From a virus (lineage: Duplodnaviria; Caudoviricetes), in the IMG/VR virus record IMGVR_UViG_3300019458_000037, positions 1 through 60,611 of that record: a stretch of DNA of 60,611 nt, one strand, 5' to 3'. The position numbers were made by a program, and so were the translations under genes. The notes under the pieces were generated by a model. It was not told where the DNA came from. It made no database searches and saw only the letters and a program-made list of their open reading frames with translations. Of the stretch, positions 50,153 through 56,713 are shown in pieces. Position 1 is the first letter of the stretch; each line of letters starts with the position of its first letter.

Positions 50153-51042
50153 GTGCGCAGCCATTGACCAACGAGCGCGTCACGGTGGAAGAGCGAGCCA
50201 CAAAAGAGGACGGCGGCCAAAGAAGTGTGCGAGCCACGTACCATGAAGGCGTCCTAGAAAGGGAGCGAGCCAACGTTGGCGAAGGCGTCACAATTGGCGA
50301 GCGAGACACACGGCCAGCGCTTGCGTCATGTAGACAGATCGAGCCATCATGAATGACTGCCGCGCAGGCAAAGAGCGAGCCGAAGAGAGGGAGTGCGACA
50401 TCGAGCAGCGAGCGAGACAAGGGACGCGAGGGAGGCCACTTTCCAGATCGAGCCATAGTGCATGAATACAGCATCATCTAGTGAGAGCGAGCCCGAGATG
50501 GAGACTGTTGCAGTCTGACGCGAGCGAACCATTGACCCCGAGTGCGCCATTGGATAGGAGTGAACCATAAGTGACGACTGAGTCCGCCGTTGCGAGTGTG
50601 GAGCCATTGAAACGGAGCGCGTCCTGAATTGAGAGCGAGCCCAATGATCGCGACAGAGACACAGCTGAGGAGCGAGCCATATCACGAGACGGCGGCATAA
50701 GGATCGAGCGAGCCATCGTTGACGACGGTGACCGAAGGAATGAGCGAGCATGGTGCATGAATGTGTAGCATAGCGAAAGAGCGAGCCCTTATCCAAGGAG
50801 TGCCGCCTGGTGGTGGAGCGAGCCATGAAGAGGGAACGGCGTCTACAAGCGGGAGCGAGCCATAGGAGGCGGAATGCAGCCGACGTGAAGAGCGTCAAAT
50901 CCGCCGTCAGCGCGGGCAGCACGCCTGGGCTGAGCAAGCATGCAGAGCGACCCTTGAACGCCTTGGAGAGGCCGAAATTGCCTGGATTTAAGGGTATTCC
51001 AGCCCTAGATCAAGAAAGCGGCAAGCGAGAAGGAGCGAGCCA
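50153..51042 (+). ncRNA. TIGR-like dual-repeat guide array 1 (~20 units plus interrupted tail)
   Basis: GAGCGAGCCA-like repeats at 50191, 50227, 50263, 50299, 50337, 50373...50853, 50890 (36-39 nt period), alternating with a GAnnGnnnC(A/C) repeat and ~8-9-nt variable spacers; final repeat at 51033. Confidence 0.88.
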
Positions 51043-51293
51043 TGAGCGGTGAGATGACCAAAGTTTCACCCTCTGAGCACAGCATCAAGATCAAGCTGCA
51101 CGGGATATTCGATTCGCGCAACAGTGTGGTCATCGACGGCATCGAGCTTGCCAGCTACGTGCGTAAAATCGACGTCATGGCGGATGCCGGTGATTTGCCG
51201 ATGGTGGTATTAGAAATACCTGTCACGCAAGTCATGGAATTTGAAGCGGTGGCTGCACGCATAGGGATCAAAATGCCTACCGAGAACAGATAG
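51042..51293 (+). CDS. Hypothetical protein
   Basis: ATG overlaps the last array repeat (AAGGAGCGAGCC-ATG). Confidence 0.6.
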   Translation: MSGEMTKVSPSEHSIKIKLHGIFDSRNSVVIDGIELASYVRKIDVMADAGDLPMVVLEIPVTQVMEFEAVAARIGIKMPTENR

Positions 51294-51307
51294 GATAGGT
51301 AGCCGGC

Positions 51308-51682
51308 ATGTTCGTGAAAGGCCAAGGCAAGGTCGGCGGGCGCAAGCCAGGGGTGAAGAATAAGCGCACGCTCGAATTGGCGAAACTCTGCGCCAAGCTC
51401 ACGCTCGATAATCCGAAATTCGTCAAGCAACTCCAGGACATGATTGACAAAGATTTCACGCAGATCGATACCCCGCTCCTCCTCCGCTTGATTGACTACG
51501 GCTATGGGCAGCCGCAGAAGCGCGTCGAATTGAGCGCGCCGGGCGGCGGGCCGATTGAAGTCGTCAGCCCCGATTTTGGCGCCCCCAGCCGCTACCAGCA
51601 ACCAGCGGCTCGCGGCAATGGCGGGCGCAATGGCTCTCCAAGTACAACCACACCTTCCAACGGCCGCCGAACACGACGTTAA
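51308..51682 (+). CDS. Terminase small subunit-like protein
   Basis: FVKG..GGRKPGVKNK...GYGQP...ELSAPGGGPIEV; directly upstream of TerL. Confidence 0.7.
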   Translation: MFVKGQGKVGGRKPGVKNKRTLELAKLCAKLTLDNPKFVKQLQDMIDKDFTQIDTPLLLRLIDYGYGQPQKRVELSAPGGGPIEVVSPDFGAPSRYQQPAARGNGGRNGSPSTTTPSNGRRTRR

Positions 51683-54788: not shown

Positions 54789-55013
54789 ATGGAAACGCGT
54801 CAATCGTATCGCTTCGAGAAGAAACCTGCTAAGCTCCCTTGTGAGCATTGCTATACCGATATAGCACGCACCGCGGATCTGAAAAAAGTACGCGCCATGT
54901 GCGTCTATTGCCGTCAGATTTGGCTGATGTCGGTCGAGTGCTGGAATGCCTTGGTCGGCGCAGGGTTAACGAAGCCGCCTACCCCTGAGCCGCCGTTCAT
55001 TGGGACCTATTGA
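54789..55013 (+). CDS. Small zinc-ribbon protein
   Basis: CEHC...CVYC. Confidence 0.5.
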   Translation: METRQSYRFEKKPAKLPCEHCYTDIARTADLKKVRAMCVYCRQIWLMSVECWNALVGAGLTKPPTPEPPFIGTY

Positions 55014-55016
55014 GCA

Positions 55017-55337
55017 ATGGGCGAATTACGCATTGCACTGGGTACGCCATTGATGCTGCCGGATGGACAGCGCTTAGAGACGGTCGTGATTCCGACTCCG
55101 CTGCGCGCCTATCATCTGCTGACGCTGCAGACGGGCGACGCGAACGCCATGTTTCGCTTCGTCGAATCGATTGCAAGGCTGCCGCGCGGCACCGCCGGGC
55201 AATTCACCTTGGATGATTATGCCGTCATTCAAGAACATTTGCTTCCGCTCTTGACCTCGTTTATTCGTCTCGGGCCGCTCTTTCAAAATATCACCAATTC
55301 GTTCTTGACCACGCCCCCACCGAAGGAGTCGCCATGA
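55017..55337 (+). CDS. Hypothetical protein
   Basis: ATGA-coupled to the portal gene. Confidence 0.55.
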   Translation: MGELRIALGTPLMLPDGQRLETVVIPTPLRAYHLLTLQTGDANAMFRFVESIARLPRGTAGQFTLDDYAVIQEHLLPLLTSFIRLGPLFQNITNSFLTTPPPKESP

Positions 55338-56713
55338 GCCGCCAGACCGACAACGGCAAGGTGGAGAAACAAATGCTACAGCAAGCCATTGCCATTGCGG
55401 AGCTTGGCGCGCCTGGGCTGAAAATCTCAGGAGGCCTGATCGATGAAGAATTCCTGCCAGAGCTCCGGGGGCGCAAAGCGGCGCGCGTCTTTGAAGAGAT
55501 GCGTCAAAATGATCCCACCATCGGGGCCGTCCTGATTGCGATTGAACATCTCCTGAAGCAGATCCCATGGACGGTGCAGGCGGCGAGCGACGCGCCGCAA
55601 GCGAAAGAGCTACAGGAATTCGTCTCAGGGGCGCTCTTCCATGATATGTCGACCAGTTGGCAGGAAGTCCTCAGCGAAATCCTCACCATGGTCCCCTTCG
55701 GCTGGGCCTATCTGGAGGTGGTCTATAAGCTGCGCAAGGGGCCAGGCAAGGATCCGACGACCAGATCGAATTTCAATGATGGGCGGATCGGCTGGCGCAA
55801 ATGGTCGCTGCGCGGGCAGAATACGCTCGTGCGCTGGGAATTCGACGAGGCCGGGGGCATTCAGGCGATGGTGCAGAATCCTCCCCCGGCCTATCGGCAG
55901 ACCATCATCCCGATTGAAAAAGCCATGCTCTTTCGTACGGTCGCACATCGCAATAATCCAGAAGGCCGCTCGCTGCTGCGCAATGCCTATCGACCGTGGT
56001 TCTTCAAAAAGCACATCGAAGAAATCGAGGGGATTGGGGTGGAGCGTGACCTCGCCGGCTATCCGGTATTCAAGATCGATAAAGAGGCCCCGGATATTTG
56101 GAACAAAAATGATCCTGACGCCTTGGCGGTGAAAGCGAAATTGGAGAGCATCATCACGGCGGTGAAACGCGACGAGCAGGAGGGGATGATGCTGCCCTGG
56201 TGGGTGGACTTCCAATTAGTGAGCACCGGGAGCCGTCGCGCCTTCGATACCACGGCGATCATCTCACGCTATGACCAGCGTATCGCCATGAGCTTGATGG
56301 CGGATTTCATCTTGCTCGGCTCTAGCGACGTCGGCAGCTTTGCCCTCTCGACCGACAAAAGCAGCATGTTCGCCTCGATCCTGGACGGCTTGGCGGATAA
56401 TATCGCCGAAATCATCAACCGGCACGGGATCCCGCGCTTGCTCGATCTGAATAATTGGCCGCTCGATCTGGCGCCCAGGCTCGATCACGGCAAGGTCGAG
56501 CCGAAGGATATCGCCGGGTTAGCGGAGTTCGCGGCGAAACTCGGCGCAGGGGGGCTGATCCAGCCCTCAGTCGAGCTAGAGGCTGCACTGCTGGAATCGG
56601 CAGGTCTACCGGTGCCTCCAGAGGTACGAGGGCTAGAAAAAGCCGCCTGGACTGGCCAGCGCGCCTTTCGCCAGGCGATGGCACGCTATAAGCAGGCGCA
56701 CCAGCGCCGGTAG
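55334..56713 (+). CDS. Portal protein (DUF935 / Mu gp29-like)
   Basis: NNPEGRSLLRNAYRPWFFKK.IEEIEGIGVERDLAGYP; 459 aa, downstream of TerL. Confidence 0.88.
   Translation: MSRQTDNGKVEKQMLQQAIAIAELGAPGLKISGGLIDEEFLPELRGRKAARVFEEMRQNDPTIGAVLIAIEHLLKQIPWTVQAASDAPQAKELQEFVSGALFHDMSTSWQEVLSEILTMVPFGWAYLEVVYKLRKGPGKDPTTRSNFNDGRIGWRKWSLRGQNTLVRWEFDEAGGIQAMVQNPPPAYRQTIIPIEKAMLFRTVAHRNNPEGRSLLRNAYRPWFFKKHIEEIEGIGVERDLAGYPVFKIDKEAPDIWNKNDPDALAVKAKLESIITAVKRDEQEGMMLPWWVDFQLVSTGSRRAFDTTAIISRYDQRIAMSLMADFILLGSSDVGSFALSTDKSSMFASILDGLADNIAEIINRHGIPRLLDLNNWPLDLAPRLDHGKVEPKDIAGLAEFAAKLGAGGLIQPSVELEAALLESAGLPVPPEVRGLEKAAWTGQRAFRQAMARYKQAHQRR

Follow-up and report, generated by a model that had tools for sequence, protein, structure and literature searches.

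The guide RNAs (tigRNAs) of dual-repeat TIGR-Tas systems are encoded in arrays that typically flank tas directly on one or both sides (Faure et al. 2025, PMC12045711). According to that paper, a typical array starts with a truncated edge repeat and ends with another, after which comes a rho-independent terminator. In the SpTasH protein of Salicola phage CGphi29, residues Y289 and H296 were reported to cut the precursor RNA (pre-tigRNA) in the edge repeat, and this Tyr/His processing dyad is described as conserved in dual-repeat systems (PMC13421893; preprint 10.64898/2026.09.09.750476). A possible link between tigRNA maturation and translation is also suggested by the authors of the preprint (10.64898/2026.09.09.750476). 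The natural biology of TIGR-Tas is largely open, including the timing of guide production, the source transcripts, and the targets. In this study, we analyzed a dual-repeat TIGR-TasA system in the virus record IMGVR_UViG_3300019458_000037 (Duplodnaviria; Caudoviricetes), all 60,611 nucleotides (nt) of which are referred to here as the window. The system itself is known, and what is new is its architecture, in which the guides are far from tas, split into separate arrays, and embedded in the late operon. A circularly assembling phage with 44 guides in its packaging operon is a concrete, testable case of natural tigRNA making.

The components of the system are the following:

47152-48072, + strand: tasA, coding for a Nop-domain TIGR-associated protein of 306 amino acids (aa) without a nuclease domain (phmmer, phrog_4285)
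50155-50861, + strand: TIGR array 1, 19 units and a terminal edge at 50853-50861; its first edge is degenerate at the 5' side
53027-53582, + strand: TIGR array 2, 15 units and a degenerate terminal edge, GAGCGTTTC (53574-53582)
53923-54292, + strand: TIGR array 3, 10 units and a terminal edge at 54284-54292

As parsed, the three arrays comprise 44 units of 35-39 nt (36 nt in 26 units, 37 nt in 13, 38 nt in two, 39 nt in two, and 35 nt in one). These lengths exclude a coding repeat, a reading that was considered and rejected. Each unit consists of an edge repeat, GAGCGAGCC, a spacer of 9-10 nt, a loop repeat, GAnKGnnnC, and a second spacer of 9-10 nt. Every position of the edge is kept in 37-43 of the 44 units, and positions G1, A2, G5, and C9 of the loop are kept in 41-42 of them. 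The first edge is degenerate in all three arrays, and the terminal edges are either full or adjoin start codons. With at most one mismatch, GAGCGAGCC occurs 83 times in the window, compared with 31.1 +/- 5.1 times in shuffled sequences, none of which (0 of 100) reached 83; by our own count of the match table, 41 of the 83 matches are on the + strand within the three arrays. The arrays are purine-rich (34% G, 24% C, and 14% T), and an Rfam scan detected no family within them. The repeat blocks are dual-repeat TIGR arrays of a TIGR-TasA system, and this identity is secure.

Some features of the arrays would suit decaying, unused remnants whose position, and not function, has been kept. The loop repeat is much less uniform than at other loci with the same edge, where GAGAGnnCC forms predominate; 18 of the 44 units are not 36 nt long; and the arrays are located away from tas. 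However, the conservation of the edge positions, an intact tasA with the aligned dyad, and the guides themselves (the 35 strictly parsed ones are all distinct, the closest pair differing at 6 of 18 positions) argue against decay, and we regard this explanation as quite improbable.

In phmmer searches against PDB, the tasA product matched TasR (9mty_A, E=1.7e-15) and TasH (21kl_A, E=3.2e-11) over the Nop domains, and the phrog_4285 profile matched residues 30-290 at 1.5e-53, with residues 1-29 being of low complexity. No HNH, RuvC, or other nuclease family was found in the protein with Pfam at E<=0.01, the only hit being a weak match to Transposase_20. Because a Nop domain is present and no nuclease family was detected, the protein was classified as TasA. 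Its Tyr274 and His281 (numbered by our own residue count) align with Y289 and H296 of SpTasH in the phmmer alignment, and the Tyr of the dyad is present in approximately 40 of 49 relatives from other phage loci, as counted by eye in their C-terminal tails. The arrays are situated 2.1-6.2 kb downstream of the tasA stop codon (48072); the nearest one starts 2.08 kb away, and at least six open reading frames (ORFs) lie between. The original prediction, made from the sequence alone, that the arrays are split and lie 2-6 kb from a Tas-like gene was thus borne out.

The genes that follow array 1 and surround arrays 2 and 3 are these:

51042-51293, + strand: ORF of 83 aa, without a family match in Pfam and PHROG scans
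51308-51682, + strand: putative terS, 124 aa, assigned by position and size only
51555-52973, + strand: terL, with an uncertain start (TTG 51555 or the in-frame ATG 51618)
53583-53942, + strand: gene for a YkgJ-like CxxCxxCC protein between arrays 2 and 3 (PF03692, E=1.1e-5, 26.5 bits, cut-off 23)
54293-55337, + strand: tightly packed small ORFs, i.e., an 84-aa Cys-rich ORF (54293-54547) and then ORFs ending at 54725, 55013, and 55337
55334-56713, + strand: portal (Portal_Mu, 1.2e-36; phrog_113, 4.3e-80)

The terL product was matched by Terminase_3 (5e-7), Terminase_6N (4e-4), and phrog_7579 (1e-10). Putative terS had no match in Pfam or PHROG and no similarity to the terS of two other loci, L087 and L022. 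With terS placed by position and size, the predicted order of array 1, ORF, terS, terL, array 2, YkgJ-like gene, array 3, small ORFs, and portal was confirmed. Long ORFs of the window are nearly all on the + strand, and the arrays share their strand with every neighboring gene. Genes are closely packed from 51042 on; the region has only three non-coding gaps (50104-50154, 50862-51041, and 52974-53026), and intergenic space is essentially nil between array 2 and portal. The degenerate last edge of array 2 adjoins ATG 53583, where the YkgJ-like gene starts, and the final 20 nt of this gene lie within the first unit of array 3. The last edge of array 3 adjoins ATG 54293 of the 84-aa Cys-rich ORF, and the ATG of portal overlaps the stop codon of the ORF before it. 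Because the junctions between edges and genes have zero gaps, arrays 2 and 3 effectively look like one array that is split by the YkgJ-like gene. The usual ribosome-binding context in this phage, AAGGAGG-n-GCCATG, resembles G+edge+ATG, which means that an edge can act as the region where translation starts.

A consensus scan for promoters and terminators covered 46.8-57.0 kb. It revealed no + strand terminator-like site at any array-gene junction; the only two such sites on this strand were inside terL and inside portal, and the count of terminator-like sites was 6, compared with 9.6 expected from shuffles. No promoter-like site was found directly before any array, and 3 promoter-like sites were detected in the scan when 3.4 were expected. 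Folds at the junctions were no more stable than those of shuffled sequences, and purine-rich arrays would be expected to be poor Rho-loading sites. It is likely that arrays 2 and 3 are transcribed together with the packaging-module genes on either side, because the block from terL to portal is gap-free, edges are in contact with ATG codons, and no terminator-like site is present; this view is further backed by other lineages, in which arrays touch the terL stop codon. The idea that array promoters may also drive terminase and portal therefore stood in part: arrays 2 and 3 are in a gap-free block that extends to portal, but no consensus promoter precedes any array.

We propose that the 44 guide units belong to the nuclease-less TasA encoded 2 kb upstream, with array 1 placed at the boundary before the packaging genes and arrays 2 and 3 inside the packaging operon, between terL and portal. 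A single + strand transcript would carry arrays 2 and 3 along with terL and/or the YkgJ-like gene, small ORFs, and portal. TasA would bind each unit and cut within each edge as SpTasH does; such cutting of the shared transcript is plausible because TasA retains residues aligned to the SpTasH dyad. The cuts would free tigRNAs of approximately 36 nt and would split the polycistronic RNA into separate messages. Of these, the YkgJ-like and 84-aa ORF messages would start a few bases before their own start codons. If the arrays are co-transcribed, the 3' end of the last tigRNA in each array implies that the RNA is cut within 9 nt of the next start codon, and some effect on the message is therefore expected. 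The ribonucleoproteins would bind DNA in a sequence-specific way, with targets outside this phage, and would probably act as repressors, the role reported for other TasA proteins. Guide processing that cuts the late mRNA, as originally suggested, appears mechanistically plausible given the retained dyad residues, and that guide production is thereby coupled to packaging-gene expression is something we infer. Taken jointly, a shared transcript for arrays 2 and 3 and their neighboring packaging genes, processing by TasA, and guides directed at targets outside the phage form a reading that we hold to be moderately probable from what the alignments and gene arrangement suggest.

Targets in the phage's own genome were sought with spacers A and B placed on opposite strands at gaps of 0-2. 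There was no self-target with up to two mismatches, and at three mismatches there were 4 and 6, compared with 9 and 7 in control arrangements. Cross-targets were not above controls when 1548 guides were compared with DNA fetched from other phage loci, 1.49 Mb in all: the real arrangements matched exactly once and with one mismatch 27 times, and the controls 5 and 45 times. No guide was common to other phages, the closest having 5 mismatches in 18 positions, which is no better than shuffled guides. Matches of 18-mers are expected by chance in large collections (10.64898/2026.09.09.750476).

Relatives of terL and portal that lack arrays were compared for synteny, a check that had been proposed with the original prediction. 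Arrays with a 36-nt period were absent from the fetched flanks of all six terL relatives (44-53% identity) and of all eight portal relatives (34-48% identity). A large ORF is found closely 3' of terL in the terL relatives, and a terL-sized ORF is directly 5' of portal in those portal relatives that have enough upstream sequence; terL and portal are thus each next to a large ORF. One relative, L154, has an interval of 470 nt with two small ORFs before portal. In L087, whose portal and Tas are 48% and 44% identical to those described here, the arrays adjoin tas, and portal starts 4 nt after terL. Given these neighbors of terL and portal in relatives, and the 4-nt distance in L087, the 2.36-kb block of array 2, the YkgJ-like gene, array 3, and the small ORFs would most simply be an insertion into a conserved terL-portal junction.

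At least 120 other viral stretches contain this edge repeat at this spacing, and 119 loci (L020-L138) were examined, in which the arrays mostly adjoin tas. Among the matches listed, arrays were on the tas strand in all 62 loci holding both, and the + strand should therefore be the transcribed strand here. In the 41 gaps of 150-3500 nt between same-strand array pairs (again among the matches listed), tas was found in 18 and other content in 23, i.e., dispersed arrays are common in this family. Genes other than tas in such gaps code for a different-family TerL (phrog_2, ~1e-22) in L029 and L118, TerS (phrog_6299, 7e-19) in L022, an SNF2 helicase, and GGACT and DUF4262 proteins. In G001, seven arrays spread over 12 kb surround tas and flank a different-family terL on either side, and G002 follows the same plan; in G004, an array adjoins terS. 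The contig end of L068 truncates a closely related terL, of which the C-terminal part remains and is followed by an array; there and in L029, the stop codon of terL is the point at which the array starts. Terminal edges elsewhere adjoin Pfam-supported genes, including a DNA methylase and a YqaJ-like gene. Because all 44 guides here are more than 2 kb from tas, and the seven arrays of G001 extend across 12 kb, searches limited to tas flanks can miss a large share of guides.

The position of arrays around terS and terL in the window, G001, G002, G004, and L068 would also be accounted for if the repeats acted as DNA, e.g., as pac-like repeats recognized by the small terminase. This we consider highly improbable, as the same edge is so widespread among viral stretches, its arrays are mostly beside tas, and most of the 119 loci have no similarity to the terminase proteins tried; moreover, the complete strand agreement with tas and the variable spacers suit guide units.

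In addition, a hairpin of 13-14 bp was observed between the last edge and the terL start in L029 (10573-10630, - strand) and L118 (9297-9352, - strand), with no U-tract after it. Comparison of the two loci shows two compensatory changes and one wobble in its arms, and the hairpin may act either as a non-canonical terminator or as a protective structure at the 5' end.

The main rival to co-transcription with the packaging genes is that the arrays are autonomous and insulated, having their own promoters and Rho-dependent or non-canonical ends and occupying permissive module-boundary sites like morons, and that the packaging genes are separate and uncoupled. Features of the window that lie before arrays 1 and 2 and after array 1 are as follows:

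50109-50137, + strand: weak promoter-like pair, TTGCAT-17-TAAAGT, 7-of-12, found by eye and below the scan threshold, approximately 18 nt upstream of the partial edge that opens array 1
52995-53023, + strand: weak promoter-like pair, 7-of-12, found by eye, directly before array 2
50956-50982, + strand: 27-nt element, with an exact second copy at 35772-35798 upstream of another gene block, these being the only two copies in the genome
50996-51041, + strand: possible solitary unit, with a degenerate edge ATTCCAGCC, a spacer, a loop GAAAGCGGC, a spacer, and an exact edge GAGCGAGCC adjoining ATG 51042

Several observations weigh against our proposal, and some of them directly favor insulation. Besides the weak pairs directly before arrays 1 and 2, a 10-of-12 promoter-like site is present inside terL (52801-52829, 198 nt before array 2), and promoters may occur within spacers, the YkgJ-like gene, or terL. 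Array 1 is parted from the 83-aa ORF, terS, and terL by a 134-nt spacer, which contains a hairpin lacking a U-tract and the 27-nt element. The element is the core of a conserved stretch of approximately 70 nt (with GGGCTGAGCAAG shared upstream), and both copies are intergenic, approximately 90-110 nt before a gene start; no copy was found in viral_contigs, and folds of both copies were no more stable than shuffles. With a hairpin and a two-copy element in this spacer, the terminase genes may have their own control region, for which the element is a candidate. As regards terminators or separate promoters insulating the arrays from the packaging transcripts, the junctions are thus free of terminator-like sites, but array 1 is followed by a hairpin, the two-copy element, and a candidate control region. 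In another phage, L027 (record G009), a consensus-like TTGACA-17-TAAGGT is present between an array and terS, and some packaging operons therefore start after the array.

Two counts across the family point in the same direction. Among the matches listed, terL was detected together with an array of four or more units in 32 records of ~41 kb or more, and the nearest array was within ~1.2 kb of terL in 4 of them, compared with 1-3 expected by our rough estimate. In each of the four, the array precedes terL in the same orientation; one of the four has the consensus-like promoter between array and terS. Proximity of arrays to terminase across records is not clearly above chance. Edges adjoined start codons not significantly more often at array ends (8 of 168) than at internal positions (36 of 1441; Fisher p=0.13) when strict edges and ORFs of at least 50 codons were used; a looser edge definition, which sometimes took loop repeats, gave 11 of 181 and 40 of 1768. 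With regard to processing, TaTasR was reported not to cut pre-tigRNA itself, and self-processing is therefore not universal among Tas proteins. Published arrays also usually end with a terminator (PMC12045711).

Against insulated arrays stand the junctions of array 2 with the YkgJ-like gene, of this gene with array 3, and of array 3 with the following ORF, none of which has room for a promoter or terminator; the lack of terminator-like sites at any junction; and the arrays of L029 and L068 that begin right at the stop codon of terL. On balance, insulation of the arrays appears possible, if doubtful.

We also considered a stronger version of the proposed shared transcript, in which the arrays serve as RNA-processing cassettes in the late operons of some phages. 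Edge cuts would then segment the mRNA and set downstream output, the level of TasA would gate or time the late genes, and the hairpin of L029 and L118 would be a protective 5' end of the released message. If so, terminal edges would double as the ribosome-binding region of the next gene, with guides being made meanwhile. This version seems unlikely to us.

As for the possible solitary unit at 50996-51041, loop-plus-edge combinations occur seven times outside the arrays, compared with a mean of 1.8 and a maximum of 7 in shuffles. Such combinations also arise by chance, and this unit is suggestive only. A lone GAGCGAGCC at 48975, considered as an edge fused to a GTG start, was dropped, as it is inside a coding sequence that starts at ATG 48955.

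The layout of arrays and genes is not an artefact of one assembly, because a contig that a second assembler built from the probable source run (60,650 nt) is colinear with 49970-56800, with a single base difference. This contig also overlaps itself across the window ends, and the genome is therefore probably complete and circular or circularly permuted; IMG/VR labels the record as linear and 82% complete. When sequencing runs were searched for this DNA, one DNA run, the probable source, and no RNA run came up. The tasA gene closes a replication and recombination module (AAA ATPase, RecT, and methylase), and the packaging module comes next. The gene that directly follows tasA is:

48069-48506, + strand: cupin-like gene that matches phrog_4786 ('cysteine dioxygenase') at 2.3e-38; its ATG and the stop codon of tasA overlap (ATGA)

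Genes for Asp/Arg-hydroxylase-like proteins, at 3226-3756 and 38226-39392, were noted alongside this cupin-like gene. Downstream of portal, approximately 11 kb (56723-60611 and 1-7212) separate it from a Mu-F-like head gene (7213-8217), and a homolog of the head gene is directly 3' of portal in L087 and in the portal relative L150. The 11-kb block holds a beta-helix protein (58270-59556) and the Asp/Arg beta-hydroxylase-like protein at 3226-3756. An 851-aa ORF without a family match (4378-6933, + strand) contains repeats of ~93 nt (31 aa) at 4445-5465. A Type-P5 twister ribozyme match was found at 26540-26596 (+ strand) with 50.9 bits, compared with a gathering score of 37.6, at E=1.1e-7 and over the full model length.

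Several classes of guide systems can be compared with this locus. A CRISPR array has one repeat of 25-36 nt and spacers of similar size, and is accompanied by cas genes. Like CRISPR, the arrays described here are repeat-spacer guide arrays that would be processed from a long precursor; unlike CRISPR, they have two alternating 9-nt repeats, split spacers of 9-10 nt, and a 36-nt period. No Cas family was detected in Pfam and PHROG scans of selected ORFs. A literature search found no paper joining tigRNA with terminase, although the supplementary locus tables of PMC12045711 and TIGRSafari may list such loci, and neither 'terminase' nor 'portal' occurs in the text of the founding TIGR-Tas paper (PMC12045711), its supplementary tables aside.

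The closest match is dual-repeat TIGR-TasA as described in PMC12045711, with which the system shares alternating edge and loop repeats, spacers of ~9 nt, 36-nt units, a nuclease-less Nop protein, a phage-borne location, and a degenerate first edge. It differs from these systems in that the arrays are 2.1-6.2 kb from tas with other genes between, are split three ways among terL, the YkgJ-like gene, and portal, are followed by no terminator-like site, and have terminal edges that adjoin start codons of genes other than tas. In its Nop domain, TasA is homologous to SpTasH (PMC13421893; E=3.2e-11), and its Tyr/His pair aligns with Y289/H296; in contrast to SpTasH, it lacks an HNH domain, and its processing activity is predicted from the alignment. 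Finally, the locus resembles the intragenic tigRNAs in tas coding sequences (10.64898/2026.09.09.750476) in that guides would share a transcript with, or overlap, a protein gene. In the intragenic cases, however, it is tas itself that is overlapped, mostly in stem-loop systems, whereas here the guides are those of a dual-repeat system and the genes concerned are neighbors in the packaging module.

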